Notes: generated by a model from the letters alone, not told the origin. 64,000 nucleotides of DNA from Gammaproteobacteria bacterium (GCA_963422595.1 OY730298.1:90512-154511), one strand, 5' to 3'. Numbered from the stretch's first letter, positions 10,357-35,706 are shown. A program made the numbers and translations.

Positions 10357-11532
10357 TTGTGTCAGGGCAGGATTCAGTTTAATCAGGTGGCCGTACATTA
10401 CATTATGCCTGTTATGCCTGAGCCTGCGGATATGGGCTGGCCAGTGTCACTGGGTCTGATGGTAAGCCTCGCGGTGAGCGCTCTGATCGTGTTGACTCAA
10501 CGCTGGCACGGTGCCCTTACCTTTGATACCTCAATAGGGCCGCAGAAGTTTCATGACGCACCTACCCCGAGGGTTGGCGGACTCGCGGTATTCGCAGGCT
10601 TCTGGGTGACCGCAAGCGTGATTCCCTATTCACCAGTGCGCGAACTTATGATTGCTATCGGCATGAGCGGGTGCGTGGTGTTTCTGGCCGGTCTGGCAGA
10701 GGATTTGACAAAACGAATCTCGGTCGGGTGGCGGTTGCTGGCAGCGTTATTGTCAGGCACGTTATTTTGCATCATGACCGGCTATTCTATCGACCGGGTG
10801 GATATCCAGCTGCTCGATCCTATTATAGGACTTCCCGTGGTGTCGTTCGCATTGACGGTGTTTGCAATGGCCAGTATGGCCAACGCTATAAATATGATTG
10901 ACGGATTCAACGGCCTTGCCACCGGCGCCGTGATTATTATGTTGTCGGCATTCGCGATGGCCGCTTATTTGGCGGGCGATTATACGCTGCTGTGGCTGGC
11001 GGTCTTTAGCATCGCGGCACTGTTGGGGTGTATGTTGCTGAATTTCCCGTATGGGTTGGTCTTCCTGGGCGATGGGGGGGCCTATTTTGCCGGCTTTGTG
11101 CTTGCTGCCATAGCCGTCATGCTGCCACTGCGTAATGCCGATGTGTCGGCATGGGTCAGCGTGGTGATATTGGCGTATCCGGTGCTGGAGATCACGCACG
11201 CGGTGATCCGCAAAACTCTCCACCGTGGCCGTCGGCCGACTAAACCGGATAAAGTCCACCTGCATATGCTGATCTATCGCGCGCTGGTAAAACGGACTGT
11301 AAAGGCAGCAGACAATAAACAACTTACCAATCCCATGACCAGTATGTTGCTATGGGCTGGACCTATGACGGGGCTGGCCTTTGTTGCGCTAAATATGCCC
11401 ACCTGGCAGGGCTCCATGCTGGCCTTTGCTTTGCAAACCCTGCTATACGTGCTGGTGTATCGGGGCATCGCCAGGTTTCTGCGCTATCAGTATCCGAAGA
11501 CGCAAAAAAAGCCGGCCGCGCAGAAAAACTGA
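10357..11532 (+). CDS. Polyprenyl-phosphate N-acetylhexosamine-1-phosphate transferase (WecA/MraY family, GT4-type PGT)
   Basis: The polytopic membrane protein carries the conserved 'MANAINMIDGFNGLATG' (NAxNxxDGxDGL) motif of the MraY/WecA family. The track start is a TTG, and the true start may be the ATG at 'MPVMPEP'. Confidence 0.8.
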   Translation: MCQGRIQFNQVAVHYIMPVMPEPADMGWPVSLGLMVSLAVSALIVLTQRWHGALTFDTSIGPQKFHDAPTPRVGGLAVFAGFWVTASVIPYSPVRELMIAIGMSGCVVFLAGLAEDLTKRISVGWRLLAALLSGTLFCIMTGYSIDRVDIQLLDPIIGLPVVSFALTVFAMASMANAINMIDGFNGLATGAVIIMLSAFAMAAYLAGDYTLLWLAVFSIAALLGCMLLNFPYGLVFLGDGGAYFAGFVLAAIAVMLPLRNADVSAWVSVVILAYPVLEITHAVIRKTLHRGRRPTKPDKVHLHMLIYRALVKRTVKAADNKQLTNPMTSMLLWAGPMTGLAFVALNMPTWQGSMLAFALQTLLYVLVYRGIARFLRYQYPKTQKKPAAQKN

Positions 11533-11619
11533 ATGAATGCCTTCAGTGGTAGCCCTGGTTGTGTTTTTGGCAACGCCGGCTGCCTGATTTGGTTAATCAC
11601 CAGTAAGTGAGTATTAACG

Positions 11620-12711
11620 TTGACCACGGAAGATAATAAAAAGCTGAAGATGCTGATGATCGGGCCGTTGCCTGCTGCCGAGCCGTCCACTACTAATGTG
11701 ATTGGGGGAAATAAGGTGTTGGCTGCGGAATCAATCCTGGAACTGGGTAAGCGGGGTTTTGAGATGAAGGTGGTCGACACTTCTGGGGACGTGACTAATC
11801 TGCCTGCCTGGAAAATTCACTGTTATCGCCTGGCCCGGTTGCTGCGAGTGCTCCGGAAAACCGCGAAAAGGCTGCGGTATTCCGACGTCGTGTTCCTGGT
11901 TATCGCACCCTATTCGGCATTGGTGCTGGGGACATTAATATGGATTATCTGCAAGATGGCGCGCCGCCCCCTGGTGCTACGGTTCTCCGGCTGCGGCTTT
12001 GTGGATACCTATGAAGGATACGGACCTTTGGCGCGCTGGGTGGCAAACCGTACCTATATGCGCTCCGCTCTGGTGTACGTGGAAACGCAGCAGACGCACC
12101 GCCGCTTCAAGGGGAGAGCCAATTTCCATTACTTCCCCAATACGAGAGACCTTGCAATGCCTGACCGGATCAGGCGCAATAAAGTCAACAGGCTCATCTT
12201 TTTCGCGCAACTGCATATGGACAAAGGGCTGGCAGAGGCACTGGAGGCGTGCCGGCATTTGCCCGATGACTGCCATCTTGAGGTGTTCGGTCCACGCATG
12301 TCCGACACAGATTTCTCCGGATTCGATGGCCATCCCCGAGCGAGCTATGGCGGCGTTTTGAAGCCGGCTGAGATCCCCCAGATTCTTAGTAAATATGACC
12401 TGCTGCTGTTCCCCAGCTATTGCAGAAGAGAGGGTTATCCCGGCTCTATTCTGGAAGCCTTCCAGTGCGGCCTGCCCGTGGTTGCTGCCAGATGGGGCGG
12501 CGTTCCCGAGCTGGTCGGGCATGAAGAAAGTGGGCTGCTGGTGGAACCCCGTTCCGCAGTGGCGATTCAGGCCGCAATTACGCGGCTACTGGAAGACCCA
12601 AAGTTGTACCAGCGTTTGTGCGAGGGGGCAAAACGACGGGGGGACTGCTTTCGTAACCCTGAGTGGTATGAACGCATGGCCGCTGATCTGAAGGGTTTAA
12701 GGGTGTTATGA
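11620..12711 (+). CDS. Glycosyltransferase, GT-B fold (GT4 family)
   Basis: C-terminal 'FPSYCRREGYPGSILEAFQCGLPVVAARWGGVPELV' is the retaining GT4 E-x7-E region. Confidence 0.75.
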   Translation: MTTEDNKKLKMLMIGPLPAAEPSTTNVIGGNKVLAAESILELGKRGFEMKVVDTSGDVTNLPAWKIHCYRLARLLRVLRKTAKRLRYSDVVFLVIAPYSALVLGTLIWIICKMARRPLVLRFSGCGFVDTYEGYGPLARWVANRTYMRSALVYVETQQTHRRFKGRANFHYFPNTRDLAMPDRIRRNKVNRLIFFAQLHMDKGLAEALEACRHLPDDCHLEVFGPRMSDTDFSGFDGHPRASYGGVLKPAEIPQILSKYDLLLFPSYCRREGYPGSILEAFQCGLPVVAARWGGVPELVGHEESGLLVEPRSAVAIQAAITRLLEDPKLYQRLCEGAKRRGDCFRNPEWYERMAADLKGLRVL

Positions 12712-12768
12712 AAACATGCGTATTGTCGAACCAGGTGCCCAACCCAAGGGACGGATATCCACCACAGT

Positions 12769-13755
12769 ATGACTGAAAACAGTGCCCAACGTATCCGGAA
12801 TTCCTGCCCTGGGGTTTCGGTTATTATCCCATCACGCAACGACGCGATGAACATTACAAACTCTCTCGATTCGATCTTTGCGCAGGATTATACGGGTTCG
12901 ATGGAGGTGATCGTTGCCGACGGTTCTGATACTTCGGCAACTGCTACTATGGTTCACCGACATTACCCGTCAGTGCGGGTGGTGCCAAACCCGGAGAAGT
13001 TGACCGGCTTCGGGGCGAACGCGGCGCTGCGAGCAGCCAGCGGGGAGGTCATCGTGCGATGCGACTCCCATACGAGGTTCCCGCCGGAATACGTGCGTCG
13101 TGCAGTGGCGACGCTGATGAGAACGGGAGCAGCCAACGTCGGCGGCCGACAACAGCCAGTGGGAACCACGTTTTTTGAGCGGGCAGTGGCACTGGCGATG
13201 ACCACTCCGCTGGGGGCCGGGAACGCCCGCTACCGTTTGGGAGGCACCGAGGGGGCCGTGGACACGGTCTTTCTCGGCACGTTCCAGCGCAAGGCACTGG
13301 AAGCAGTGGGGGGATACGATGGCGCCTTGGTCCGCAACCAGGACTACGAACTCAACTGGCGACTGCGACAGCATGGCGAGACGGTGTGGTTTGATCCTCA
13401 GCTCGTTGCCTATTACCGCCCACGCGGCACGTTGCGAAAGCTGGCCCGGCAGTATTTCGACTATGGCCGCTGGAAGCGGGTGGTGCTGCGGCAGCATCCG
13501 ACCTCAGTACGTGCGCGGCATTTGGCCGCGCCGCTGCTGGTATCTGGATTGGCTGCCGCGGGGCTGCTGGGGCTGGTCGGCGTTCCTTGGAAGGTCGTGG
13601 CGGCGACACCGCTGGCCTATCTGGTTGCCTTGGCGACCGGCGCCCTGGCAGTCGGCATCAGCCACCGCGAGAAGGCGGCCGTGCTGCTGCCGCTGGTGCT
13701 GGTCACCATGCACCTTTGCTGGGGTATCGGCTTTTTCCTGCCGCCTCGGAAATGA
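12769..13755 (+). CDS. Glycosyltransferase family 2 with C-terminal TM helices
   Basis: 'VSVIIPSRNDAMNITNSLDSIFAQDY...VIVADGSDTS' is a GT2 N-terminal DXD-type signature. Hydrophobic C-terminus. Confidence 0.75.
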   Translation: MTENSAQRIRNSCPGVSVIIPSRNDAMNITNSLDSIFAQDYTGSMEVIVADGSDTSATATMVHRHYPSVRVVPNPEKLTGFGANAALRAASGEVIVRCDSHTRFPPEYVRRAVATLMRTGAANVGGRQQPVGTTFFERAVALAMTTPLGAGNARYRLGGTEGAVDTVFLGTFQRKALEAVGGYDGALVRNQDYELNWRLRQHGETVWFDPQLVAYYRPRGTLRKLARQYFDYGRWKRVVLRQHPTSVRARHLAAPLLVSGLAAAGLLGLVGVPWKVVAATPLAYLVALATGALAVGISHREKAAVLLPLVLVTMHLCWGIGFFLPPRK

Positions 13756-13792: not shown

Positions 13793-15568
13793 TTGTGCAT
13801 CCGAGAGCCGCCTGGCAGACGCCTGACTGTCGCGATCGTCGGTGTTCATGGTGGATGCGCTGTGATAGCGTCAACACGCCCTGAGTCAATGATGCAGATC
13901 GTGATTCCCATGTCCGGCTTCGGGGAGCGCTTCCGCATAGCGGGCTACAAGGTGCCCAAGCCGCTGATCAATATCGACGGCAAGCCCATCATCGCGCACG
14001 TGCTGAACCTGTTCCCCGGCGAAAGTAACTTCATCTTCGTATGCAACCAGGAGCATCTTGACGACCCCGAATACCGCATGGAGCAGATTCTGCGGTCTCT
14101 CTGTCCGACTGGACTGGTTCTCGGTATTCCACCGCATTCACTTGGCCCGGTGCATGCCGTGCGCCAGGTTGAGCATCAACTCGACCCCACCAGTCCAGTT
14201 GTAGTCAACTACTGCGACTTTTCCTGCTACTGGGACTGGAACCATTTCAGGCGATTTGTTGAGGAAGTGGCTTGCGTCGGAGCGATTCCAGCATACAGGG
14301 GATTTCATCCCCACTCGCTGGGAAGTACCAATTACGCCTATATGCGCGAAGCCAATGGTTGGGTTCAGGATATTCAGGAGAAAAAACCTTACACCAGTAA
14401 TCGCATGCAGGAGTTTGCATCGACTGGAACTTACTATTTTTCCTCAGCGCAAATCATGAGCCAGGCCTTCCGTGTGGCGATAGAGCAGAAACTGCATTTG
14501 GGCGGAGAATACTACGTTAGCCTGGCCTATAAGCCTTTGCTTGCCGAGGGCAAGCCTGTGGCCGTTTATCCACTGCAACATTTCATGCAATGGGGGACAC
14601 CCGAGGATGTCGCCGAATACAGGAGCTGGTGCAGGGCATTCCGAAGCCTGGTGGAGAAACCGGGCAGCGGCGCCAGCGTCAGACCTCAAGGCTCTGTCAT
14701 ACTGCCCATGGCTGGATTCGGCCGGCGCTTCGTCGAAGCAGACTACAGCGTGGCCAAACCGATGATCTCCGTATCCGGGAAGCCGATGGTGGTTCAGGCA
14801 ATACAGGCGCTGCCGCCCGCCGAGCATTATGTCTTCGTTCTAAGGAAGGATATGCCCGGGACCCGGGCGATCACCGATGAACTAAGACGCCTTTACCCGC
14901 AGGCGATTGTCGAGATACTCTCACAGGTCACCGAGGGGCAGGCCTGTACGGCCCTGCTCGGACTCGATGCGCTTGAACGAGCCGTTGGCAGGAGTGTGCC
15001 AGAGCCTGTGACTTTCGGTGCTTGCGATCATGGTGCCCTCTACGACGGCGTGGCGTTTCAGCAATTGGTCGACGACGACAACGTCGACGTCATTGTCTGG
15101 GGGGTGCGCGATCATGCCAATGCGCTTCGCCATCCGCAGATGTTCGGTTGGATCAAGGCTAATCACGGGTGGATAGAAAGAATTTCGGTCAAGACACCGC
15201 TCGATTCACCGGCTTCCGCCCCTATTGTATCTGGCACTTTTACATTTCGGCATGCAGATGACTTCCGACACTGTGTCGGACGACTGATCAAACGCAATGA
15301 CAGGATCAACGGCGAATTCTATCTCGACTCCTGCATCAACGACGCCGTGGAGTTGGGCCTGCGTTGTCGCCTGTTCGACCTTGACAGCTATTTGAGCTGG
15401 GGCACCCCGGATGATCTCCGGACCTTTGAGTATTGGCAGTCCTGCTTCCACAAATGGCCCGGGCATCCTTATCGGCTTGAGAATGACCAAAGGGTCGCCG
15501 TAGAGGCACTGGAGGATCTGGGCAAAACGTACTGCACCGTTGTGCCCAAGCCGGTAAAATTGACATGA
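13793..15568 (+). CDS. Tandem-duplicated sugar-phosphate nucleotidyltransferase (two LicC/GlmU-N-like NTP-transferase domains)
   Basis: Two homologous halves each begin with a nucleotidyltransferase glycine-rich loop: 'MMQIVIPMSGFGERFRIAGYKVPKPLINIDGKPII' and 'SVILPMAGFGRRFVEADYSVAKPMISVSGKPMV'. The likely true start is the ATG at 13889. Confidence 0.6.
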   Translation: MCIREPPGRRLTVAIVGVHGGCAVIASTRPESMMQIVIPMSGFGERFRIAGYKVPKPLINIDGKPIIAHVLNLFPGESNFIFVCNQEHLDDPEYRMEQILRSLCPTGLVLGIPPHSLGPVHAVRQVEHQLDPTSPVVVNYCDFSCYWDWNHFRRFVEEVACVGAIPAYRGFHPHSLGSTNYAYMREANGWVQDIQEKKPYTSNRMQEFASTGTYYFSSAQIMSQAFRVAIEQKLHLGGEYYVSLAYKPLLAEGKPVAVYPLQHFMQWGTPEDVAEYRSWCRAFRSLVEKPGSGASVRPQGSVILPMAGFGRRFVEADYSVAKPMISVSGKPMVVQAIQALPPAEHYVFVLRKDMPGTRAITDELRRLYPQAIVEILSQVTEGQACTALLGLDALERAVGRSVPEPVTFGACDHGALYDGVAFQQLVDDDNVDVIVWGVRDHANALRHPQMFGWIKANHGWIERISVKTPLDSPASAPIVSGTFTFRHADDFRHCVGRLIKRNDRINGEFYLDSCINDAVELGLRCRLFDLDSYLSWGTPDDLRTFEYWQSCFHKWPGHPYRLENDQRVAVEALEDLGKTYCTVVPKPVKLT

Positions 15569-15966
15569 AGGTCCGCTACGATTATTATATTCTGCGCTTC
15601 CTGCTAGTTGGCGTCGGATCGAATGTGGCCAATCTCCTGTGTTACCTGGCGATGCTGCACCTCCATACGCCAGTCTTTGTAGCCGCCGTTTCGGGATATT
15701 TGCTTGGGCTCACGTGCTCTTATCACTTCGGTAGAACCTGGGTCTTCCGCCGTAGATTCAATGCTAACTTGGGGAATATTACAAGATTTCTCATCGTGTA
15801 CATCGTCGGCGGAGTGGGTATGAGTGCAATCACCACCGTGTTGGTCAACGATTTGATGTTCAATTATGTGGCTGGCTGGCTGTTCGGGGCAGGATTTGCA
15901 GCTTGCAATAATTTTATCGGGCTGAAATTTATAGTCTTTAGATCGGAACAGCGCCTGGTAGATTGA
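15565..15966 (+). CDS. GtrA-family small membrane protein
   Basis: 133 aa with 4 predicted TM helices and 'YYILRFLLVGVGSNVANLLCYLAML', typical of GtrA. It is start/stop-coupled to its neighbours. Confidence 0.7.
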   Translation: MKVRYDYYILRFLLVGVGSNVANLLCYLAMLHLHTPVFVAAVSGYLLGLTCSYHFGRTWVFRRRFNANLGNITRFLIVYIVGGVGMSAITTVLVNDLMFNYVAGWLFGAGFAACNNFIGLKFIVFRSEQRLVD

Positions 15967-16691
15967 TGGCATCTAAATTTGGATTTTTCCTCCGGTTGGG
16001 GTTTTTGCAGGACTGGGCTTCCGCCTTTATTGCGAGCCTGAAGCCGGCCGTTCTGCACAATCTGGAAAAATACTATGCGCTCAAAAAGGTGTGCTACCTT
16101 TCCGCGATAGAAGACGTCGAGGGAGACTATCTTGAGTTCGGTGTTTTCACCGGCAGTTCGTTTTGCTACGCGCTCCGCTGCTGCAGGAAGCTCGCTCAAA
16201 TCAATCCGAATATTGTCGACACGAAGTTCTACGGCTTCGATTCGTTCGCCGGATTCGGCCCCCTTGAACAACAGGACATACATCCTTTCTATATTGACGA
16301 GAATTTTGCAGTCAGTTTGCCAAAGGTTGGGAACCGGGTTCGCAAGGCCGCCGGGGACATGGCGTTTCAATTGATTCCTGGCTTCTTCAGTGAATCGTTG
16401 CGGCATGGAGCACAACGGATGGGCATCAAAAAGGCTCGTATCATTTTTATCGACAGCGATACCTTCACCAGCGCAAGCCAGGCCCTGACCTTTTGCCGAC
16501 CGACGGTTCGACAAGGCACGTTTATCGTGTTGGACGACTATTTTTCCTATCGAGGCCGCGAAGACCGCGGCGTCCGGCGCGCTTTTTCCGAATTCACCAA
16601 CGCCAGCGGCATTGAGGCGCGGCACGTCTTCACCTATGGCATGGGCGGCAGCGTTTTTGTCGTATCAAAAGCGGTGCCAGATGCAGCCTGA
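15963..16691 (+). CDS. Class I SAM-dependent O-methyltransferase, TylF/MycF (macrocin-O-MTase)-like; likely sugar O-methylation
   Basis: 'EGDYLEFGVFTGSSF' and 'IIFIDSDTFTSASQALTF' resemble TylF-family motifs. Confidence 0.55.
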   Translation: MMASKFGFFLRLGFLQDWASAFIASLKPAVLHNLEKYYALKKVCYLSAIEDVEGDYLEFGVFTGSSFCYALRCCRKLAQINPNIVDTKFYGFDSFAGFGPLEQQDIHPFYIDENFAVSLPKVGNRVRKAAGDMAFQLIPGFFSESLRHGAQRMGIKKARIIFIDSDTFTSASQALTFCRPTVRQGTFIVLDDYFSYRGREDRGVRRAFSEFTNASGIEARHVFTYGMGGSVFVVSKAVPDAA

Positions 16692-17388
16692 ACTATCCAT
16701 CGTGATTCCCTGCTACAACGAGGCCGCTAACCTTCCCCTGTTGCTGGAGAGCTGTAATCATATTATCACGAGGCCGGGCACGGAGGTCATTCTGGTCAAT
16801 AACGGCTCGACGGACGATACACCTCGCATCCTGCGCGAGTTGCTGCCGAAGTATCCCGGTTGCCGAAGCGTGCGCGTGGCAATAAATCGGGGCTACGGCA
16901 ACGGCATTCTGGCCGGCCTGGCAGCGGCCGACGGAGATATTCTGGGCTGGACCCACGCCGACATGCAGACGGACCCCCAGGACGTCCTGCGCGGGCTTGA
17001 ACTGTTCCGAAACCATGGCCAAAATATCTTCGTCAAGGGCCACCGCCACGGCCGTCCGATGGCGGACGTTTTCTTCACGGCCGGCATGAGCGTGTTCGAG
17101 ACGGTTTTGCTCGCCAGGCCGATGCGGGATATCAATGCCCAGCCGACGATGTTTACCCGCGATTTTTATGAGACGTGGAAAGCGCCGCCCGACGATTTTT
17201 CGCTCGATTTGTACGCCTACTTTCAAGCCTGCGCCACCAACCTGCGCGTCTACCGCTTTCCGGTCAGGTTCGGTCGACGCGCTCACGGCCTCTCGCGCTG
17301 GAACGTTAACTGGTCGGCTAAGTGGAAATTCATCCGCAGGACTGCGGCCTTCAGTCTGCGCCTGAGAAAGTCCCTGAAATCATCATGA
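16681..17388 (+). CDS. GT2 polyprenyl-phosphate glycosyltransferase (GtrB/ArnC/DPM1-like)
   Basis: 'LSIVIPCYNEAANLPLLLESC...VILVNNGSTDDTPRI...DADMQTDP' fits the GtrB/DPM1-type GT2 pattern. It is paired with a GtrA-family gene. The ATG at 16681 was chosen over the longer track ORF. Confidence 0.7.
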   Translation: MQPELSIVIPCYNEAANLPLLLESCNHIITRPGTEVILVNNGSTDDTPRILRELLPKYPGCRSVRVAINRGYGNGILAGLAAADGDILGWTHADMQTDPQDVLRGLELFRNHGQNIFVKGHRHGRPMADVFFTAGMSVFETVLLARPMRDINAQPTMFTRDFYETWKAPPDDFSLDLYAYFQACATNLRVYRFPVRFGRRAHGLSRWNVNWSAKWKFIRRTAAFSLRLRKSLKSS

Positions 17389-17993
17389 AGTTGATCGTTC
17401 ATCGCCGCAACACGTTGCCGGAACTCAAAGCGACCCCAGAACAGTACGGCGTCGAGGTTGATATACGCAGTACCGGCAGGAAACTGATGATGCATCACGA
17501 TCCCTTCGTCACCGGCGAAGATTTCAGAGAATGGCTGGATGCCTATCGACACGCGACGTTGATCCTCAACGTCAAGGAAGACGGTCTGGAAAAACGTTTA
17601 ACCGCTCTGATGCAGACACAGGGCATCGAAGATTATTTTTTCCTGGATCAGTCTTTCCCTTCACTGGTGCAATGCGCCCGGGCGGGGCAACACCGCTGCG
17701 CGGTTCGCGTTTCCGAATTCGAATCGGTTGAGACGGCCCTGACCCTGGCCGGACGGATCGACTGGGTCTGGGTGGATTGCTTTACTCGTTTCCCGCTGAC
17801 GCCTGAAGACGTCCGCCGACTCCATGAAGCCGGTTTCAAGCTCTGCCTGGTGTCGCCGGAATTGCAGGGACGCACTGCCGCAACCAGTATCGCCGCTCTG
17901 GCCACGCAGCTCGGCAAGTGCCGCATTCGGCCCGATGCCGTTTGCACCAAGCACCCCGAGCTGTGGAAACAAGCTGGAAGCGGGGGAGGGTAG
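17385..17993 (+). CDS. Glycerophosphodiester-phosphodiesterase-like (GDPD/UgpQ-like) small protein
   Basis: 'IVHRRNTLPELKATPEQYGVEVDIRST' resembles the GDPD 'HRG..PENT...E.D' N-terminal motif. Its ATG overlaps the previous stop (ATGA). Confidence 0.45.
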   Translation: MKLIVHRRNTLPELKATPEQYGVEVDIRSTGRKLMMHHDPFVTGEDFREWLDAYRHATLILNVKEDGLEKRLTALMQTQGIEDYFFLDQSFPSLVQCARAGQHRCAVRVSEFESVETALTLAGRIDWVWVDCFTRFPLTPEDVRRLHEAGFKLCLVSPELQGRTAATSIAALATQLGKCRIRPDAVCTKHPELWKQAGSGGG

Positions 17994-17996
17994 AGC

Positions 17997-27930: not shown

Positions 27931-30900
27931 GGATCTCAGGCTGAGCGGCTCAATTCCGCCGGCACTGGGGAAGCTTGCGTATCTGAAAGAACTGTGGCTG
28001 AACGACAACGAATTGAGCGGCGATATCCCATCCGAATTGGCGATGCTGAGCAATCTGTCCTCGCTGCGACTTGCCGGCAATGAATTATCGGGCACCGCGC
28101 TACGCGATGTCGCGGCCCATGATCTCGACCGCGATCTGCGCTGCCGCCACGCGGCACCCCGGAGTAACCCCGGCCTGGTCCACGATTGCGCCGTGTTGCT
28201 GTCCGCACGGGATGTTCTGGCCGGCGCTGCCTCTTTGAATTGGGACGACTCGATGCCTCTTGAATATTGGGAAGGTGTGGTACTGGACGGTGTGCCGGCA
28301 CGGGTGACGGGGCTGATTCTGCCGGAGAAGGGACTGAGCGGCCGCATTCCCCCGACCCTCTCGGAGTTGGACCGGCTTGCAGTGCTGCGTATCCACCGCA
28401 ATCGGTTCACCGGCGCCATCCCGCCAGAGTTGGGGCGGCTGACCCACTTGCGCGAGCTTGTGCTTGCTTCCAACGTCCTGAGCGGTCCTATTCCGCCGCA
28501 GCTCGGCGATCTGGAGCGGCTCACTCTGCTGCACCTGTACGGAAACCGCCTCAGTGGTCCAATTCCGCCCGAGTTGGGGAAATTGCGCAGCCTGCGCGGC
28601 TTGAGCCTGGCTTCCAACCGTTTAACCGGTCCAATTCCGGTGGAAGTGGGGCGCCTTGCGAACCTCAAGTGGCTAAATCTCCAGTTCAATCGCCTGTCCG
28701 GTTCCATCCTGCCGACGTTGAGAAGGCTTGAGAAACTAGAGTCCATCAAACTATCGCATAACGATTTCGTCGACGCGGTGCCGGAAGACTCCAGACGTGA
28801 CAATGTCGATCCGGAGTCTGCCGCGCCTGCACTGGCAGGCAGGCATGACCCCGGCCTGTCCAGCCCGACATCCCTCCAGAACAACCCCGACCTGCTTGCC
28901 GACCGTGCGATTCTGCTGTCCGCACAGGACGTTCTGGCCGGCGCCGCCTCCTTGAATTGGGACGACTCGATACCCCTTGAATATTGGGAAGGTGTGATGC
29001 TGGACGGTGTGCCGACGCGGGTGACGGGGCTGAATCTGCCGGAGAAGGGACTGAGCGGCCGCATTCCCCCGCAACTGGGAGAATTAAATCGACTTGCATC
29101 ACTGCGCCTGCACCGCAACCAGCTGACTGGTGACATTTCACCAGAACTGGGAAAACTGGCTAATTTGCGGGAGCTGGCACTTGGATTTAACGCCCTGAGC
29201 GGCACTATTCCTCCGCAACTGGGCGACCTGGAGCAACTTACCTTGTTACACTTGCACCGCAACCGGCTGACCGGACCGATTCCGCAGGAGCTTGCAAGAC
29301 TGACGAGCTTGAGGACGTTGACGCTCGATTCCAATGCGTTGAGCGGCGAGGTGCCGCCGCAGTTGGCGAAGCTGCCGAACCTTGGGGAGCTGTGGCTTGA
29401 CGGTAGTCAATTGGACTTACCACTGGAGTTAGCGACATTCAATGAGTCGCCGACCTTGGGCCCGAATGGTAGTTCCGCTGCGATCACGACCGCACCACGT
29501 GTCGATCCCGATCTGCTCTGCCCGAGCGCCGATGGTGACGGACTGGGTGACGATTGCGCCGCCTTGCTGACCGCAAGGGATGCTTTGGACGGTGATAGCA
29601 CGTTGAACTGGAATCGTGTTACGCCCGTCGGCGCATGGCAAGGCGTCAGACTGGGTGGCCAGCCGCCGCGTGTGTTCGCAGTGGACCTGTCACAGGCGGG
29701 GTTGAGTGGCCATGTCCCAGCGGAACTGGGAAGGCTGGAGATGCTCGTTTGGCTGGATCTCGACGGCAACGCCCTGACCGGTTCGATTCCGTCCGAACTG
29801 AGAAAGCTTGCCAACCTGCGAAGACTGGATCTCGACGGCAACGCCCTGACAGGCCCCATCCCGCCGGAATTGGGAGGTATGTTGAACCTGGAGGAGTTGT
29901 CGTTACGAGGTAATCGGCTGACCGGCCATGTTCCACCGGAACTGGGGGCACTGCCCAAGCTCTTGACCCTGCGACTCGGCGGCAATGAATTCAGCGGCTG
30001 CCTCCCGTGGGAACTGCAAGATATGGCGGACCGTGAGCTGGAGCTCGACCTGCTATGCAGCCCGTCAATGGTGAGCGGCCGCGGCCTGTACGAAGACGTT
30101 ATCGCCTTGATGGAGATGCGCGACATCCTGGCCGGCAGCATCCGCCTGAATTGGAGCTACGCATCGCCCATCTCTGCCTGGGAGGGCGTCACCGTGAGTC
30201 CGGTGCGGCCCGCTGGTCGGGGAGCGCGAGCGGGGGCCGCTGCACAGGAAACGAAGCGTGTGGTCGGGCTGGATTTGTCGGGGATGGGTCTCGATGGGCG
30301 TCTGCCGGCGGAGTTGGCGGAGTTGGACCAACTCATCTGGCTGCGCCTTAACGACAACCGGCTCACCGGCGCCATCCCGCCGGAGCTGGGCAGGCTCGTT
30401 GAGCTACGGGAACTGGCACTGGATTCCAACGTCCTGACCGGCACTATCCCTCCGCAACTCGGCCGACTTGCGAACCTTTCGGAGTTGTGGCTTGGACACA
30501 ACCGTCTGACTGGCGCTATCCCGCCGGAATTGGCGGCACTTGACACGCTATGGATTCTGCGGCTCGGCGGCAACGAATTGCAGGATAATTCACCGGACAA
30601 AGAATTCCCCACCTGGAACAAGGCCGTTAAGATCGTGAATAAGGCCATAGACCCATCGGCTCCCGGCGGCATCCCGCGATCCACCCATAATCTGTTCTTG
30701 CAGGTGGGGGTACAGACGGGGATTTTTGGCCTTGGCGCTCTGGCACTGCTGTGCGTCTCTCTGATTTTCAACCTGCGAACGCGGAGGGGAAAGAAGGTCA
30801 CGCCGGTGCAGTGTTTTGCTGCCGCCTGTACCACTATTATCCTTGTTCATAACACGTTCGAGGTCTTCCTGCTGCAAAACCTGTTCACGATAGGATGTGT

Positions 30901-30976
30901 CACTTGGATTTTGATCGGGCTCGGCGCCGGAGCGGTCAATCTGCAGGTGGTGAACAGCCGCCAGCAGGCGCCTTGA
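26471..30976 (+). CDS. Giant plant-type leucine-rich-repeat protein with C-terminal Wzy_C TM helices (continuation of the 25152 gene in another frame)
   Basis: 1,501 aa. Repeated modules consist of a Cys-containing cap ('LCLPL.HVGEGLLSDCETLLAARDVLAGNATLDWKRSRPIAAWQGVAIG') followed by 24-residue LRRs ('LxxLxxLxLxxNxLSGxIPPELGxL'). The C-terminus 'PRSTHNLFLQVGVQTGIFGLGALALLCVSLIF...' carries the HNxxL...G..G motif and final TM helices of the O-antigen ligase/Wzy_C family. The reading frame is open upstream of 26471 back to the frameshift site. Confidence 0.75.
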   Translation: MLALNDNALSGPVPPQLGALENLEELRLRGNRLSGEVPLELANLTNLSLLRLAGNDFTGTPPPTLHDTADHDLDQDSLCLPLLHVGEGLLSDCETLLAARDVLAGNATLDWKRSRPIAAWQGVAIGKTSGGIRVVRLDLTDLGLSGSIPPELGGLDQLMSLRLAGNWLTGSIPPELGELMRLRELRLANNRLSGDIPPELGWPFGLSILRLAGNDFTSDLPATLDHVGEHDWGLELFCLPAGKAGIPSPGISTAMLEDCTVLLEVQDVLAGEAMLNWKQSRPIGTWQGVKVGGAPPRVVAINIHERGLRGVIPPALGQLDKLESLRLSNNALTGLIPPELGRLRNLRVLALNDNALSGPVPPQLGALENLEELWLRSNRLSGEVPLELANLTNLSLLRLAGNDFTGTPPPALHDTADHDLDQDSLCLPLSHVGEGLLSDCETLLAARDVLAGNATLDWKRSRPIAAWQGVAIGKTPGGIRVVGLDLTDLRLSGSIPPALGKLAYLKELWLNDNELSGDIPSELAMLSNLSSLRLAGNELSGTALRDVAAHDLDRDLRCRHAAPRSNPGLVHDCAVLLSARDVLAGAASLNWDDSMPLEYWEGVVLDGVPARVTGLILPEKGLSGRIPPTLSELDRLAVLRIHRNRFTGAIPPELGRLTHLRELVLASNVLSGPIPPQLGDLERLTLLHLYGNRLSGPIPPELGKLRSLRGLSLASNRLTGPIPVEVGRLANLKWLNLQFNRLSGSILPTLRRLEKLESIKLSHNDFVDAVPEDSRRDNVDPESAAPALAGRHDPGLSSPTSLQNNPDLLADRAILLSAQDVLAGAASLNWDDSIPLEYWEGVMLDGVPTRVTGLNLPEKGLSGRIPPQLGELNRLASLRLHRNQLTGDISPELGKLANLRELALGFNALSGTIPPQLGDLEQLTLLHLHRNRLTGPIPQELARLTSLRTLTLDSNALSGEVPPQLAKLPNLGELWLDGSQLDLPLELATFNESPTLGPNGSSAAITTAPRVDPDLLCPSADGDGLGDDCAALLTARDALDGDSTLNWNRVTPVGAWQGVRLGGQPPRVFAVDLSQAGLSGHVPAELGRLEMLVWLDLDGNALTGSIPSELRKLANLRRLDLDGNALTGPIPPELGGMLNLEELSLRGNRLTGHVPPELGALPKLLTLRLGGNEFSGCLPWELQDMADRELELDLLCSPSMVSGRGLYEDVIALMEMRDILAGSIRLNWSYASPISAWEGVTVSPVRPAGRGARAGAAAQETKRVVGLDLSGMGLDGRLPAELAELDQLIWLRLNDNRLTGAIPPELGRLVELRELALDSNVLTGTIPPQLGRLANLSELWLGHNRLTGAIPPELAALDTLWILRLGGNELQDNSPDKEFPTWNKAVKIVNKAIDPSAPGGIPRSTHNLFLQVGVQTGIFGLGALALLCVSLIFNLRTRRGKKVTPVQCFAAACTTIILVHNTFEVFLLQNLFTIGCVTWILIGLGAGAVNLQVVNSRQQAP

Positions 30977-31222
30977 TGCCTGACTGCGGGGCTGCAAATT
31001 GATAAGGATGAGATGTTTTCGTTCTTCAGCCGGGTTCTGTTCCCCATGTCCGTCCTTAATAATAGGACTGAAGATGATAGCAGGGGAAAGCAGACGCGAG
31101 GCACTACCTGATACCCGGCAGATCAGTTGGTCGTATGAAAACATTGTAACGGGTCGGCCCGCAGATTCATTTTGCATGTGGATATTGGAGAGTGTCAAAC
31201 CGCCGCAGATTTTTCCGGCACT

Positions 31223-32644
31223 ATGAACGCGAAAACTGACCCGGCCGGTGTTGAGGCCACGTCATCGAATGAGCACGGCTGCGCGGCTGTGCCTGACGTG
31301 CCATTGCCCGGTAGTGGCAGCGGGCGCGCGGCGCATGAGGTTGCCCAAGTGTTTGGTACCCGGATTGGGGTGTACGGCATCGGTATTCTCGGCCAGAGCT
31401 TGCTGGCATACCTGCTGTTGCCTGCCGGTCGCGGTGAATATGCGGTGTGCGTGGCATTCGGTAGCCTGCTCGGTGTGCTGTTCCCGATCAGTGCCGCCTA
31501 CGGCGCTCAGTATTACACGGTGTCGGGGCGGATTAGCCTGTCGAAGTGTCTGTGCGGGGCAGTCGGCGTGTGCCTGGCCGGTAGTGTAGTGGCTGCGGTG
31601 GTGGCACTGCCGCTTATTTATAGCGGTACGACTTTTTTCCGCAAGGCGGACCCGGCTGCGTTCCAACTGGCCTTGTGGCTGGTGCCACTCATTTCGGTCT
31701 CCAGCGTGGCGGAGCTGCAGCTCGCTGGGCTCAGACGCTTCATGCCGTTGGCAGGGTTTTTACTGCTTCAGTCCGTTACTATGGTGTTGGGGATATTGGT
31801 GCTGGCGTGGAAGCTGGATGCGGGGGTGAATGGCGCACTGCTGGCACTGATTGCGGGCTATGTGGTGAAATTGGCGTGCTGCATTGGGTATCTGCACAAA
31901 GCATGTGGTCTGCGGTTCGAGTTGCCGTCTGCCGCGGAGCTTCGCCGTATCGTCGGGTACGGCCTGCGCTATCACGTCGCACAAGTGGGAAACGACGTGG
32001 AACCGCGCATCGGTGTATTCGTGCTGGGGACGTTGGCCGGACGCGCCGATATCGGACTGTTCGCGGCCGCCAGTACAATCATGCTGCGCCTCGGCTATTT
32101 GCTGAGCGCGGTGGCACCGGTGCTGTATCCGCGCGTGGCCAGGAACCCGGCGAGGTCAATGGAGGCAATCGGGTGTTCCTTGCGCCTGATTTGCCTGACC
32201 ACCGCCGGCGCGGTCGCAGCATTTCTCGCTATCTGCGAGCCTGTCGTCCGCATCCTGCTGTCCGAGGCATTTATGCCTACGGTGCCGCTGCTGTGGATTA
32301 TGGCACCGGGCGTTGTCGCCTATGCCGGGGCGAACGTGTTCATCGCTTATTTCACGGGCAGTGACCGTCCCGGGATCTGTTCCTCGGCTTTGTGGCTGAG
32401 TCTGACCGTTAACATCGCTGCTTCCCTGGTGTTGTATCCGATGCTCGGCATCCGCAGCGTCGCCTGGGCGATGACCGCAGGGCTGTTTGCCCGAGGCGTG
32501 TTTCTCGCCGTTACGTTTCACCGCACCACCGGCTTGTCCTGGCGGTCTCTGTGGCTGCCGCGACGCGGCGACGCGAGCTTTTTGTGGGGGCTGGTGCGCT
32601 CTATGCTGGCACGTGGGGGCAGAAAATTTCCAATCAGGAGATAG
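31223..32644 (+). CDS. wzx: Wzx-like polysaccharide flippase (MOP/PST family)
   Basis: About 470 aa with roughly 12-14 predicted TM helices and a polysaccharide-biosynthesis-protein-like profile, adjacent to Wzy and Wzz. The start was moved to the ATG at 'MNAKTD'. Confidence 0.65.
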   Translation: MNAKTDPAGVEATSSNEHGCAAVPDVPLPGSGSGRAAHEVAQVFGTRIGVYGIGILGQSLLAYLLLPAGRGEYAVCVAFGSLLGVLFPISAAYGAQYYTVSGRISLSKCLCGAVGVCLAGSVVAAVVALPLIYSGTTFFRKADPAAFQLALWLVPLISVSSVAELQLAGLRRFMPLAGFLLLQSVTMVLGILVLAWKLDAGVNGALLALIAGYVVKLACCIGYLHKACGLRFELPSAAELRRIVGYGLRYHVAQVGNDVEPRIGVFVLGTLAGRADIGLFAAASTIMLRLGYLLSAVAPVLYPRVARNPARSMEAIGCSLRLICLTTAGAVAAFLAICEPVVRILLSEAFMPTVPLLWIMAPGVVAYAGANVFIAYFTGSDRPGICSSALWLSLTVNIAASLVLYPMLGIRSVAWAMTAGLFARGVFLAVTFHRTTGLSWRSLWLPRRGDASFLWGLVRSMLARGGRKFPIRR

Positions 32645-32823: not shown

Positions 32824-32886
32824 CACGTGGCTGCGAACTTGAGGATATGCGCTTGAATCTGTGCTGGAAACGGATTCTGCGTCCAA

Positions 32887-34296
32887 TTGAACAACTGCTC
32901 ACGCAGAGGCAACCGATGGGAAATGAACAAGTTGTTGTGCGAACATACCAGAGAGCGAATGAGTATGACGCCTGGTAACCGGCGGCCGGTAAATCTGTCA
33001 ATACATGTGGCATTCTGGCTGATGGCGGCTATGCTGTTGCTTAACGTGGTCTGGATTCCGACGCTGATTGGACTCGGTAGAGCGGTGAGCTGGCTTGTTG
33101 CGCTGCCGCTGCTGCTCAGCCAGATGTTCCTGGTCAGTCTTGCCTTTCGCCTTCCGCTACGGCGGGCGATGGGTAGCGCCGGCTTCCTTATCGTGGCCGC
33201 GCTGGCATACTACTTTTTCATCGGCTCGTCTATGGCCATCGGCACGGTACCGTACCCGTTTGAGAGTATGCTGAAAATTATTTACTCTGCCATGGCCGTG
33301 GTGGCAGCGGCGGTGGGCAGTTCGCTGGTGCTGAGACAAACCGGAATTGACGGGCTGGTTACCGGAATGCTGGCACTGCTTGGCGTGACGTGCACACTCA
33401 TTATCGCGTCGCCGCTGCTCAGGAACGTGTTCTCATTTCAGCATCAGGATTTCTTTGATCAGTTCTTCGGGGTTTTCATGGACCCGAATGACGCGGGCTA
33501 CATGGGTTGTCTGGCGGCGGTGCTGGCCCTGGCGTCGCTCACTCCGCATAGCCGATGCCGAAAGCTGGCAGCCGCGGTGCTGATGCTAAGTGTGGTGGCC
33601 ACGATTTTGACCAATTCGAGGAGCGCGATCGTTACGCTTGGGCTGACACTGTTCTTTTTTCTGCCGTCTCTATACCGTGCCTTGAGGGCATTTTGGCCAG
33701 CTATCGTGGGTGTAGTGATCGGTATGACCCTGCTGGTGGCCAACGTTCTCGACTTTGCGTCATTGTTCTCGGAAAAGAATATCCGCAGGTTTACGCAGAT
33801 GACGCAGCCTTTTGAAGCAAATGTCCTCGAAGATAGCCGCTTGTTCCTGTGGCGAATCGCGCTGCCACAAATTGCGGAGGCGCCTGTTCTTGGCGGCGGT
33901 TTGGGAAAGATGCAGTACCTCGACGGCACCATTTGCGGCGGTTCGATCTACGCCGTTTGCGGAGTGCATAATACGTACCTATTGCTGTTGGGAGAGGCGG
34001 GCATGGTTGCGCTGACGCTGTTTCTGCTATTTCTCGCTACCTTGTTGTGGCAACGCTGGCGGTGGGGAGCTTCCATCGCCACTAACGTGGCCGCTGGTTG
34101 GACGCTGGTGCTCGCCGTTAATGCCATGATGTTTCACCATTTGCTGAGTACGCTATGGTGTGGCTTCGTTATCGGCGTGAGTTGCGCAATGGCAGCATAC
34201 GCCGCTGAGACTGTGTCCGCTCCGACTAAAGTTGACCTGATGCAGCCGAGTCCCCGTGGCGGGACAGGCTTGTCAACCCCGGGAGGCCACACGTAG
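32887..34296 (+). CDS. wzy: Canonical O-antigen polymerase/ligase family protein (Wzy_C)
   Basis: 'LTNSRSAIVTLGLTLFFF' and 'RLFLWRIALPQIAEAPVLGGGLGKMQ...VHNTYLLLLGEAGMVAL' are Wzy_C hallmark motifs. Polytopic. Confidence 0.7.
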   Translation: MNNCSRRGNRWEMNKLLCEHTRERMSMTPGNRRPVNLSIHVAFWLMAAMLLLNVVWIPTLIGLGRAVSWLVALPLLLSQMFLVSLAFRLPLRRAMGSAGFLIVAALAYYFFIGSSMAIGTVPYPFESMLKIIYSAMAVVAAAVGSSLVLRQTGIDGLVTGMLALLGVTCTLIIASPLLRNVFSFQHQDFFDQFFGVFMDPNDAGYMGCLAAVLALASLTPHSRCRKLAAAVLMLSVVATILTNSRSAIVTLGLTLFFFLPSLYRALRAFWPAIVGVVIGMTLLVANVLDFASLFSEKNIRRFTQMTQPFEANVLEDSRLFLWRIALPQIAEAPVLGGGLGKMQYLDGTICGGSIYAVCGVHNTYLLLLGEAGMVALTLFLLFLATLLWQRWRWGASIATNVAAGWTLVLAVNAMMFHHLLSTLWCGFVIGVSCAMAAYAAETVSAPTKVDLMQPSPRGGTGLSTPGGHT

Positions 34297-35706
34297 CGTG
34301 AGAAACGGCCTCACCCCCAGGGAATCGAGGAATAACGCGCCGCCCATCGCCACAATTAACCCAAAGACGCCGGCAAGGATTGCATAGATGAGAAGTGCAA
34401 TGGCCTTCATGTCAGGAGTGAGTACCGCGTTGGATGCCATACGAAGCGTCAGGTTAGCGGCGGCATCTTCAACGACCATCTCTACGGATTCATTTTCCAG
34501 GTTAACCAACGCTTCCTCCAAACGGTCTCGATTCCCGGCCAGTCGTCTGCGTTCGGTACTCACCTCTTCCTTTCTACGTTGCATCTCCTGAAGGTCATTC
34601 TCCAACTTTGAAATACGTTGTGAGAACAGCCCTTCGGCCAAGGCTAAACCTGATAATTCGGAGTTCCCGTTACCGGACAGGCCGTCGGAGAAATTGGCGA
34701 TTTCTGCTTCGATTTGCTGGATTTGGCTTTGCAACATTTGAATGAAGGCATCAACATCGGCCCGCTGGTCGGCCACGTTGTCGTGCATCGCGTCCAGGTC
34801 GTCGAACGCAAACTCCCAGTTATCGTAACCAGAGGCAGAATAAGTGAACGCCCGGGTCTTGAGCAGCAGGATTGCCAACCCGTTCGACCTGACACCTGTT
34901 TCGTCTGCACTCCTGATTTGCTTGCGAAGTCCACGCGCGTCGTTGAGAAGCCCATGGAGTAGCCGCCAGCGATTAAAGATGTCAGTGCGACTTAAGCGTT
35001 GCGTTTCCGCGACCTCTTCAATCTCTTGTGTCTTTTCCTCTATCTGCCGATCAATCCTGTTGATTTCATTGCGGGTGATATGCTCTTTCAGTTTCGACTG
35101 GGCAAGCGTGTATTCGTCCAGTATACGGGTTATCCCCTGCATGACCGCACTGTGCCTTTCCCGCGACGAAATCCACACGAGATTCACCTCGCGAACATAT
35201 TCCTCACCCCAGGTATCGGCAATGCTCAGTGCCTTCTCTGGTGAGTCGGCGGTCACCTTAATACTGATCAAGTCACTAAGATTTTGTCTGCTTTGGGCGC
35301 CGGACAGATAGGCAGAAACAGAGCTCATCAGCCAAGTCATATTACGTTCTTCTGCATCCAACTGTCCGCCAATGCGTTTAAGCACGGCCGTGGCTACCTT
35401 GCCGTTGTAGACGAGACCAAGCATAGCAGCCTGCCTGGAAGTAATGGCGGGAAGCCCTTCCAGTTCCGAGGTTTTTGAAACAATCAGTACCGTAGCTATA
35501 GCCGTATAGCTGGGACTTAATAAGTGCTGGTAGCTCCAGGATATGGCAAAGGTGAGTGCCGTAACCAGAACAAAAACCAAGCTAAACTCCCGCCACCAGG
35601 AGAATAACCTGATCAGGTGTCGACGAAGGTCGATTTTATCGGGCCAGGCAGATTCGCGCGGGCGCAACGGTCGTTGCGGGGAAGTAGTCTCTGTTGTTTC
35701 AGCCAT
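34273..35706 (-). CDS. wzz: Polysaccharide co-polymerase / chain-length determinant (Wzz/PCP family)
   Basis: An N-terminal TM helix ('LVFVLVTALTFAISW'), a long coiled-coil periplasmic region and a C-terminal TM helix ('IALLIYAILAGVFGLIVAMGGALFL') give the PCP topology. Confidence 0.7.
   Translation of the reverse strand: MAETTETTSPQRPLRPRESAWPDKIDLRRHLIRLFSWWREFSLVFVLVTALTFAISWSYQHLLSPSYTAIATVLIVSKTSELEGLPAITSRQAAMLGLVYNGKVATAVLKRIGGQLDAEERNMTWLMSSVSAYLSGAQSRQNLSDLISIKVTADSPEKALSIADTWGEEYVREVNLVWISSRERHSAVMQGITRILDEYTLAQSKLKEHITRNEINRIDRQIEEKTQEIEEVAETQRLSRTDIFNRWRLLHGLLNDARGLRKQIRSADETGVRSNGLAILLLKTRAFTYSASGYDNWEFAFDDLDAMHDNVADQRADVDAFIQMLQSQIQQIEAEIANFSDGLSGNGNSELSGLALAEGLFSQRISKLENDLQEMQRRKEEVSTERRRLAGNRDRLEEALVNLENESVEMVVEDAAANLTLRMASNAVLTPDMKAIALLIYAILAGVFGLIVAMGGALFLDSLGVRPFLTLRVASRG

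Follow-up and report, generated by a model that had tools for sequence, protein, structure and literature searches.

A mobile, probably Gtr-type decoration cassette with a putative ribulose-5-phosphate-derived donor pathway in a mosaic surface-glycan locus of a gammaproteobacterium

An earlier reading of a 64,000-nucleotide stretch of gammaproteobacterial DNA (GCA_963422595.1, OY730298.1:90512-154511; we call the whole stretch the window and count all positions from its first letter), made from the sequence alone, had picked out a GC-rich glycan-biosynthesis island with a periplasmic glycosylation module at 10357-35706. We find that this region is probably a composite accessory locus, in which genes for a cell-surface heteropolysaccharide made by the Wzx/Wzy route accompany a recruited, mobile, Gtr-type decoration cassette that brings along a pathway from ribulose-5-phosphate to its donor. 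Taken as a whole, the region is an accessory glycan locus of an ordinary type; the cassette is a new form of extracytoplasmic glycosylation system, whose putative donor pathway and fusion of a GT-C membrane domain to a kinase differ both from GtrABC and from the systems of Kelly et al. (2024). The sequence-only reading had suggested a periplasmic modification system rather than a plain O-antigen cluster, but these are not alternatives here: a Wzx/Wzy cluster and a decoration module lie together. It had also missed that a kinase, a HAD phosphatase, an aldolase, a GDPD-like protein and a nucleotidyltransferase form, together with a GT2 and a GT-C protein, one conserved mobile unit. Periplasmic side-chain glycosylation sets the serotype, the phage receptor specificity and the immune recognition of bacterial surfaces, and the cassette is a widespread plug-in of such glycosylation, with 1497 homologues of its fusion protein, found in several phyla and on plasmids.

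The cassette consists of nine genes on the plus strand (13793-23853), in the order nucleotidyltransferase, (GtrA), (TylF), GT2, U201, GT-C::kinase fusion, HAD phosphatase, aldolase and GT-C. The first gene (13793-15568) encodes a 591-amino-acid, double-domain nucleotidyltransferase of the IspD/MobA/GlmU-N-like kind, with Pfam NTP_transf_3 and NTP_transferase matching at residues 38-224 and a second domain matched by PDB 4evw at residues 302-394 and weakly by NTP_transf_3; homologues that are 56-70% identical in amino acid sequence occur in 64 loci. The second (15565-15966) encodes a 133-amino-acid membrane protein of the GtrA family, as had been proposed, which passes the Pfam threshold for GtrA_DPMS_TM (PF04138; 57.3 bits, cut-off 26.1), scores 20.1 bits on NCBIfam gtrA_1 (cut-off 50), contains at least three hydrophobic segments and is a candidate flippase for polyprenyl-phosphate-linked sugar. 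A small hydrophobic open reading frame (ORF) similar to GtrA occupies the same position in 35 of 59 loci. The third gene (15963-16691), for a TylF-like O-methyltransferase (Pfam TylF, 54.3 bits), is optional and occurs in only 5 of 79 related loci.

The fourth gene (16612-17388) encodes GT2b, a short, soluble glycosyltransferase of 258 amino acids (Pfam Glycos_transf_2, 95 bits). Over the whole catalytic domain its closest relative in PDB phmmer searches is the dolichol-phosphate-mannose-synthase-type enzyme DPMS of Pyrococcus (5mlz; E = 1e-10, residues 26-229), followed by ArnC (1e-9) and GtrB (5ekp; 2e-8); the top match, chondroitin synthase 2z87 (E = 6.5e-11), is partial and covers residues 25-133 only. 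By these similarities GT2b may act as a polyprenyl-phosphate glycosyltransferase, and it is no equivalog of GtrB or ArnC. The fifth gene (17385-17993) encodes U201, a 201-residue protein whose family is 55-71% identical; H6, N9, E24, D26, R28 and H38 never vary in it, and R7 and D39 hardly ever do. The E. coli homologue is named a PI-PLC/GDPD family protein by PGAP, a label that suits this mostly invariant set of His, Asn, Glu, Asp and Arg residues.

The next three genes encode three of the enzymes that set the cassette apart from a Gtr operon. The sixth gene (17998-20058) joins a GT-C-fold membrane domain to a kinase of the class II phosphoribulokinase (PRK) type (Pfam PRK, 98.3 bits); its start most likely lies at 17998 (MKTLCLH...), which corrects the 17997 of the sequence-only reading. 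The kinase domain (residues ~385-686) aligns with Synechococcus PRK (6hzk) over 200 amino acids without a gap (E = 3e-34) and keeps the PRK blocks: the P-loop, DDYH..DR, L.P.AN, Y.H.TG, GLH, YLD.D...K..RD...RGH and R.PD...I.PQ..HAD. Among NCBIfam models, PRK07429 (E = 5e-53) matches it far better than the uridine kinase model (8e-20). The seventh gene (20055-20822) encodes a HAD phosphatase whose nearest model is that of the haloarchaeal ribulose-1,5-bisphosphate 5-phosphatase (NF053830; E = 2.7e-49, 167.9 bits, against 89.6 for the next HAD family). The product of the eighth (20819-21886) belongs to the class II aldolase/epimerase family (Pfam Aldolase_II, 68 bits, cut-off 22.2) and carries an additional domain at its C-terminus. 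Residues H104, H106, H167 and E90 and the motif G23-G24-N25-x-S27 (GGNxS) are invariant in 29 homologues; by analogy to FucA, we take the histidines to be the zinc triad, the glutamate to be catalytic and GGNxS to be the phosphate pocket. Enzymes of the class II aldolase family act on ketose-1-phosphates.

Two large polytopic proteins of the cassette had been read as GT-C-like, and AlphaFold2 models searched with Foldseek against the PDB confirmed a predicted GT-C fold for both. The ninth gene (21883-23853) encodes a 656-amino-acid protein whose model (pLDDT 88, pTM 0.85) has GT-C proteins as its best 19 PDB matches, comprising ALG9, ALG12, ArnT, STT3, AftA/B and Pmt1/2 (probability 0.99-1.00, E = 6e-7 to 6e-2, TM 0.26-0.50). 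Its GT-C nature was resolved by structure prediction and not by sequence methods: Pfam (E ≤ 10), NCBIfam and PDB phmmer and profile searches returned nothing for this protein, nor for U201 or U382, a protein encoded further downstream. D56 and E57 are kept in at least 90% of 43 aligned homologues and lie just past the first transmembrane helix (residues 24-48), probably in the first extracytoplasmic loop and on the periplasmic side. The protein also has a periplasmic alpha/beta domain and a C-terminal beta domain of about 110 amino acids. This beta domain (23480-23850, residues ~535-650) is a widespread repeat for which Pfam has no model, present in up to 10 copies in proteins of up to 1851 amino acids. 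In the fusion protein, the N-terminal domain (residues ~1-385, with D47 invariant; pLDDT mostly 70-93, whole-model average 62.7) matches Gpi14/PIG-M (9wno; target-normalised TM score, TMt, 0.63, E = 3e-4), ALG6 (6snh; TMt 0.56), PIG-U (9ub7) and ArnT (5ezm), and the C-terminal half matches PRKs.

We then asked where the cassette occurs. This genome is the sole member of its genus among 56 genomes of its family, and the cassette, searched for by its fusion gene, was found in none of the 55 others. By contrast, a metagenome contig (L101; GC 0.59) carries a cassette that is 84% identical at the nucleotide level, and 96% in the GT-C gene, and its flanking genes share at most 29-45% amino acid identity with this genome. 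Such identity despite unrelated flanks directly shows that the cassette has recently passed between lineages that are not related, and a horizontal origin of the cassette is strongly supported. On the same contig TylF is split into ORFs of 183 and 54 amino acids (2439-3167), and an extra 535-amino-acid gene (8359-9966) stands between the aldolase and GT-C genes, which indicates that the cassette is remodelled on short time scales.

The horizontal acquisition that had been suggested for the whole region is firmly borne out for the cassette only. U382, the Wzy_C::LRR protein, Wzx and the glycosyltransferase GT2a have homologues with 49-60% amino acid identity in two of the 55 family genomes. These two relatives belong to another genus, carry the homologues at a different chromosomal site, between lapB-pyrF-galU and amiC, and have core proteins that are 65-74% identical to those of this genome. 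The 25-kb region is thus a mosaic of modules with different histories, among which the cassette alone is peculiar to this genome. A second metagenome contig (L002; GC 0.66) brings together homologues of GT4, the cassette, GT-C and Wzx with an intact LRR::Wzy_C gene of 2059 amino acids.

Beyond the family, the 1497 homologues of the fusion protein are mostly about 683 amino acids long, about 58% identical and labelled "uridine kinase". The same gene string is found in Solimicrobium silvestre, where it lies beside ABC-transporter O-antigen genes, and on a metagenome contig. From a scan of species-representative genomes we fetched 78 loci; all six core genes are present in 57, of which 51 also share their order, and amino acid identity is 45-70%. 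The loci come from beta-, gamma-, alpha- and deltaproteobacteria, Planctomycetia, Melainabacteria, Prochlorococcus and Leptospiraceae, with hosts that include Pseudomonas, Erwinia, Yersinia, Massilia, Nitrosomonas, Legionella, Methylococcaceae, Geobacter and Roseibium. The gene after the aldolase encodes a polytopic membrane protein of 490-670 amino acids in 36 of the 48 loci in which a downstream ORF was found. Pairwise identity among these 36 proteins is only 11-20%; Pfam matched none of them save one (DUF2298), and against the P0002 family profile the downstream proteins gave a weak match (66% probability, E = 5.5e-5). Conserved donor genes followed by a hypervariable transferase are the pattern known from GtrC.

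The cassette is also found on mobile DNA. A 33-kb E. coli plasmid (NZ_CP145712.1; L103, 4986-17325) carries an eight-gene unit alone between two copies of IS26. One of these copies is frameshifted; the plasmid comes from a human stool isolate, and a near-identical one is present in an E. coli from a bullfrog. Plasmids of Azospirillum and Hirschia carry the fusion gene as well. Neither the fusion gene nor the cassette was found in 50,697 phage records, and we rejected for it the phage origin known for gtr operons. Full-text literature searching found no paper that mentions the cassette.

In its architecture the cassette resembles the GtrA/GtrB/GtrC systems by which Shigella and Salmonella phages glucosylate O-antigen. 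In both (for the cassette, by prediction), a GT2 enzyme loads polyprenyl phosphate, GtrA is the presumed flippase and a GT-C protein adds the sugar in the periplasm; in both, too, conserved donor genes combine with a hypervariable, acceptor-specific GT-C in a mobile, self-contained unit. Whereas Gtr systems draw on housekeeping UDP-glucose, the cassette adds six conserved genes of its own, for the kinase, the HAD phosphatase, the aldolase, the GDPD-like protein, the double nucleotidyltransferase and a second GT-C. It differs further in that its GT2 has no transmembrane helices and in its absence from the phage records searched.

The analysis establishes the folds and families of the proteins and the conservation, gene order, mobility and foreign origin of the cassette; we infer each catalytic step, the identity of the sugar and the acceptor as follows. 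In the cytoplasm, the PRK domain would convert ribulose-5-phosphate to ribulose-1,5-bisphosphate (RuBP), from which the HAD enzyme would remove the 5-phosphate to leave ribulose-1-phosphate. The aldolase-family, GDPD/PI-PLC-like and two-domain nucleotidyltransferase enzymes would turn this product into a nucleotide-activated C5 sugar, which TylF may O-methylate in some versions. The soluble, DPM1-like GT2 would place the sugar on polyprenyl phosphate, GtrA would carry the lipid-linked sugar over the inner membrane, and the conserved, kinase-fused GT-C and the hypervariable second GT-C would transfer it to a periplasmic glycan. The surface polymer itself would be made by the initiating transferase, GT4, GT2a, U382, Wzx, the Wzy_C proteins and the PCP-like protein encoded around the cassette. 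A Calvin-cycle-type kinase is here coupled to a membrane glycosyltransferase, which implies a new route from ribulose-5-phosphate to a lipid-linked sugar. Once solved, the pathway could account for sugars of known O-antigens that are still orphans, offer glycoengineering a new donor pathway and give names to thousands of genes now called "uridine kinase".

Parts of this scheme have precedents. The HAD enzyme and the adjoining class II aldolase, which is weakly similar to ribulose-1-phosphate aldolase (NF053831; E = 2.9e-4), recall the non-carboxylating pentose bisphosphate pathway of haloarchaea. That pathway is catabolic, soluble and archaeal and obtains RuBP from R15P isomerase, whereas the cassette enzymes sit in a glycan cassette, would obtain RuBP from PRK and score below both equivalog cut-offs. 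The kinase shares all its motif blocks, gap-free, with the class II PRKs of cyanobacteria, plants and archaea (6hzk, 6kev, 5b3f, 9qko); unlike them, it is fused to a GT-C-fold membrane domain of about 385 amino acids, in a non-phototroph, and scores 180 against a cut-off of 236. Photo_RC, the photosynthetic reaction centre family, was not found in the genome; a cyanobacterial host, at which the length of hemH and the LRR proteins had hinted, is rejected for this reason and by the gammaproteobacterial HtpG homologues described below. The ArnC/ArnT system and the mycobacterial decaprenylphosphoarabinose and methylthioxylose capping systems (a GT2 or UbiA synthase plus a GT-C) likewise present a polyprenyl-phosphate-linked, pentose-type donor to a GT-C, and the structural matches here include ArnT, AftA and AftB, as the sequence matches of GT2b include ArnC. 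Identity to these systems is only 9-15%, however, and the region has no genes for 4-amino-4-deoxy-L-arabinose, a DprE-type epimerase or UbiA.

The cassette shares its logic, too, with the three-component systems by which Citrobacter youngae O1/O2 attaches pentofuranose side chains (Kelly et al., 2024, PMC11127046; commentary, PMC11194591). There a pentose drawn from central pentose-phosphate metabolism is likewise added outside the cytoplasm, with the help of a phosphatase of the HAD family, a GtrA-like protein and a GT-C. Those systems start from phosphoribosyl pyrophosphate, use a UbiA-like polyprenyl-phosphoribose synthase and involve no nucleotide sugar (PMC11127046); the cassette instead has a PRK-type kinase, a nucleotidyltransferase and a GT2. 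Routes based on a kinase, an aldolase or ribulose are unmentioned in that paper.

Several observations weigh against our reading of the cassette and of the region around it. The HAD, PRK and ArnC-like scores all fall below the NCBIfam equivalog cut-offs (167.9 bits against 330 for NF053830, 180.3 against 236 for PRK07429 and 48.7 against 529 for ArnC). GT2b has no hydrophobic segment, unlike GtrB and ArnC with their transmembrane helices, so that of the GtrB/ArnC/DPM1-like identity first given to it the PDB neighbors stand and the membrane anchor and the ArnC score do not. Some forms of DPM1 have no transmembrane helix, and GT2b may work likewise. The phosphate of ribulose-1-phosphate is on C1 and not on the anomeric C2, and a plain nucleotidyltransferase plus a GT2 would not activate a glycosyl donor from it. 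Because ribulose-1-phosphate is not anomerically activated, the pathway requires additional chemistry, which would have to come from the GDPD/PI-PLC-like enzyme and from the second domain of the nucleotidyltransferase. The kinase half of the fusion model is poor (pLDDT < 50), too poor for use, and the scheme offers no reason for joining a GT-C to a kinase. As to the region, part of it recurs in two relatives, so that "island" strictly fits the cassette only; there is no tRNA in the window, there are no flanking direct repeats, and no integrase or transposase was found among the ORFs of the region.

The anomeric problem and the missed cut-offs are what an alternative account of the donor can build on. 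In this account the kinase, HAD and aldolase trio would not make the donor, which would be a common sugar-1-phosphate activated by the nucleotidyltransferase; the PRK-like domain would phosphorylate a lipid-linked intermediate or another sugar, and the HAD enzyme would dephosphorylate it later, as in the decaprenyl-phosphoribose/Und-P-Ribf-5-P pathways. In the three-component pentofuranose systems, lipid-linked pentose-5-phosphates are indeed substrates of HAD phosphatases (PMC11127046, PMC11194591), and the cassette kinase is joined to a fold of a type that binds polyprenyl phosphate. The kinase domain, however, keeps every PRK block, gap-free over 200 residues, no other HAD family comes near RuBP 5-phosphatase in similarity to the HAD enzyme, and a class II aldolase with full catalytic residues is always adjacent. 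We regard this account as unlikely, though it is to be taken seriously.

The acceptor may also differ from the one proposed. As a periplasmic glycosylation module, the cassette could modify something other than the neighboring Wzx/Wzy polymer, such as lipid A/core, a periplasmic or outer-membrane protein (by O-glycosylation) or another glycan. It travels alone on the E. coli IS26 plasmid and lies next to ABC-transporter O-antigen genes in Solimicrobium, which makes it independent of this cluster; the fold matches include ArnT and PMT; and the Wzy_C family, of which two to three proteins are encoded here, includes O-oligosaccharyltransferases. Yet the cassette is embedded in polysaccharide clusters here, in contig L002 and in Solimicrobium, its hypervariable second GT-C suits diverse glycan acceptors, as with GtrC, and no candidate acceptor protein was found. 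A different acceptor is a minority possibility, on a par with the alternative donor; for the protein glycosylation that the sequence-only reading had allowed, the data speak neither for nor against.

Within our preferred scheme, in which the trio makes the donor and a periplasmic glycan receives it, the gene content suggests one specific and decidedly speculative product, to which we give a small probability: the cassette could be the missing biosynthetic route for the ketopentofuranose side branches (D- or L-xylulofuranose, Xulf) of some O-antigens. Ribulose-5-phosphate would pass through RuBP (PRK) to ribulose-1-phosphate (HAD), which the class II aldolase would convert to xylulose-1-phosphate by retro-aldol/aldol epimerisation. 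The first nucleotidyltransferase domain would then form NDP-1-xylulose, and the PI-PLC/GDPD-like enzyme would turn this, by way of a 1,2-cyclic phosphate, into a 2-phosphate, bringing the phosphate to the anomeric carbon. The second nucleotidyltransferase domain would yield NDP-2-Xulf, the GT2 polyprenyl-phosphate-Xulf, and GtrA and GT-C would flip and transfer the sugar. This route would find a role for every conserved gene and, if true, would represent a novel mode of ketose activation. Xylulofuranose is known from the O-antigens of E. coli O95/O97 and of Yersinia enterocolitica O:5,27 and O:10. For the D-Xulf of E. coli O95/O97 the donor genes were reported as not found (PMC7685785), and for the L-Xulf of Yersinia enterocolitica O:10 they have only been guessed (PMC11380512). 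Of 5426 complete E. coli genomes, two carry the cassette, both on plasmids, a distribution that neither supports nor refutes the link.

The sequence-only reading had called the region GC-richer than its flanks, and the windowed profile bears this out: GC content is 0.569 at 12.7-34.3 kb against 0.482 for the genome, near the 95th percentile of 5-kb genome windows (mean 0.482, standard deviation 0.047, 95th percentile 0.567). GC content at third codon positions (GC3) in the genes of the region is 0.57-0.74, which is the 81st to 98.5th percentile of the genome's 887 long ORFs. Spurious antisense ORFs are as numerous as had been described, with one of 651 amino acids opposite the LRR gene. Within the block GC content is uneven, at 0.48 in the GT-C gene (21883-23853) and 0.485 in GtrA, and about 13 other GC-rich patches are found elsewhere in the genome. 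These other patches, the GC-richness of LRR::Wzy_C regions relative to their surroundings in two relatives (G009 and G016) as well, and the lack of mobility genes, tRNA and flanking repeats would fit a native locus whose composition comes from the amino acids and codons that LRR and membrane proteins prefer. We consider this very improbable and, for the cassette, largely refuted already: the cassette is absent from the 55 other family genomes searched, 84-96% identical at the nucleotide level to that of a contig with unrelated flanks and present on plasmids and across several phyla, and the soluble enzymes of the region are high in GC3 too. That the assembly wrongly joined a GC-rich block of some other organism in the sample to this genome, which its composition unlike that of the flanks might suggest, is scarcely credible, given that the genome is a single 1.78-Mb contig (99.87% complete, 0.05% contaminated), the block is compositionally mixed with a GT-C gene at host-like GC, and related modules are present in family genomes.

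Together with the cassette, the genes between 10357 and 35706 comprise 17 co-directional plus-strand genes and one minus-strand gene, all of them glycan-related by ORF, Pfam and NCBIfam analysis. The WecA-like initiating transferase, wzx and wzy that the sequence-only reading had listed are present, and the core of a Wzx/Wzy pathway is complete with all three over their Pfam cut-offs; the Wzz that it had added is weak. The initiating polyprenyl-phosphate sugar-phosphate transferase is of the WecA/MraY family (10357-11532; Glycos_transf_4, 91.7 bits, cut-off 27), has about 10 hydrophobic segments and matches WecA TIGR02380 below its cut-off (E = 4e-23). GT4, a GT-B glycosyltransferase (11620-12711; Glycos_transf_1, 82.9 bits), is 62-63% identical in amino acid sequence to the GT4 of contig L002, against 32% for its best full-length match in a family genome. 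GT2a (12769-13755; Glycos_transf_2, 70.9 bits), which has C-terminal transmembrane segments, has a 60% identical homologue in relative G016, adjoining the Wzy_C::LRR gene there. Downstream of the cassette, the Wzx/MOP-family flippase (31172-32644; Polysacc_synt, 40.8 bits, cut-off 28.2) has 51-52% identical homologues in the two relatives, and a Wzy_C-family membrane protein (32887-34296; Wzy_C, 58.7 bits, cut-off 31.7) with about 11 hydrophobic segments may be a polymerase or a ligase. The candidate chain-length regulator on the minus strand (34273-35706) scores 20.1 bits on Wzz (cut-off 25.5) and has a coiled-coil middle with hydrophobic segments at both ends, a PCP-like layout.

Between the cassette and Wzx lie U382 and a Wzy_C membrane protein with an LRR insert of about 1400 amino acids (25152-30976). 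The latter is now read as two ORFs: the first (25152-26498) encodes the N-terminal part of Wzy_C and LRRs, and the second (26471-30976) LRRs and the C-terminal part of Wzy_C. An LRR stretch of about 550 bp is duplicated within it (26286-26839 and 27326-27880, about 1.04 kb apart, 96-100% identical). The first copy reads CTGGGCGGCTG near 26450-26453 and the second CTGGGGCGGCTG, so that GGG at about 26450 stands against GGGG at 27491 in the 98%-identical duplicate, and loss of one G near 26450 accounts for the split of the gene. Uninterrupted Wzy_C::LRR ORFs of 2059 and 2031 amino acids are present in contig L002 and relative G009. U382 (24007-25155, 382 amino acids, without a family) has a 58% identical homologue in G009, between Wzx and Wzy_C::LRR. 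Its N-terminus (MTIRMLCILPISTDARIAKRIDML...) looks, by eye only, like that of a GT-B glycosyltransferase, and wherever it is found (here and in G009) it is accompanied by Wzx and Wzy_C::LRR. In G009 (L108, C1:1482000-1501000; 2795-13285), three tandem Wzy_C::LRR paralogues of 2031, 637 and 824 amino acids follow Wzx and the U382 homologue, between galU and amiC. Wzy_C with an LRR insert is a recurrent, expanding gene family within this bacterial family.

The region had been read as a single island inserted between hemH and htpG, with the hemH-HNH pair as one of its ends, and comparison of the flanks in 10 relatives overturned both points. The core genes hemH and HNH (8183-10025, minus strand; Ferrochelatase 387.6 bits, HNH_5 66.1 bits) are adjacent in all 10, and HNH is 80-87% identical in amino acid sequence, above the 61-77% of hemH. 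Because HNH (9399-10025) is conserved beside hemH, it is a core gene and no island marker, homing element or mobile element, and we ruled it out as a boundary. On the right, htpG (35790-37673, minus strand; NCBIfam HtpG, 821 bits) has uncultured Gammaproteobacteria as the source of its nearest named homologues. In none of the 10 relatives are hemH and htpG neighbors; they lie tens to hundreds of kilobases apart, and no simple empty site is definable as a result. The 3' flank of htpG in relatives is 3-18 kb of unrelated, variable DNA followed, in most of them, by the block that lies here at 824-830 kb. Beyond HNH there are 2-4 kb of variable DNA, followed by the block found here at 347-357 kb (eight relatives) or at 55-66 kb (two genomes of genus g10). 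In the present genome, outside the window, a gene for a 2032-amino-acid protein with fn3/Ig repeats (G000:C1:817369-823467, locus L104; GC about 0.60) abuts the block at 824-830 kb, which suggests that the current order of hemH, island and htpG arose when two variable regions recombined. The cluster thus sits at the rearranged junction of two variable hot spots, where a streamlined bacterium remodels its surface from modules of different origin.

A run of 22 C (10248-10269, plus strand), seen by direct reading, lies in the 330-bp gap between HNH and the first gene of the cluster and could be a slippage-prone tract that affects cluster expression. The cargo at the 3' hot spot of htpG varies from genome to genome in the family, with examples in G015 (L006, 5939-7654) and G001 (L003, 14715-16898); it includes an Rhs/Tc-like protein of 2318 amino acids (L007 of G013, 3955-10911), a colicin-DNase/WHH nuclease protein, and sugar epimerase and aminotransferase genes.

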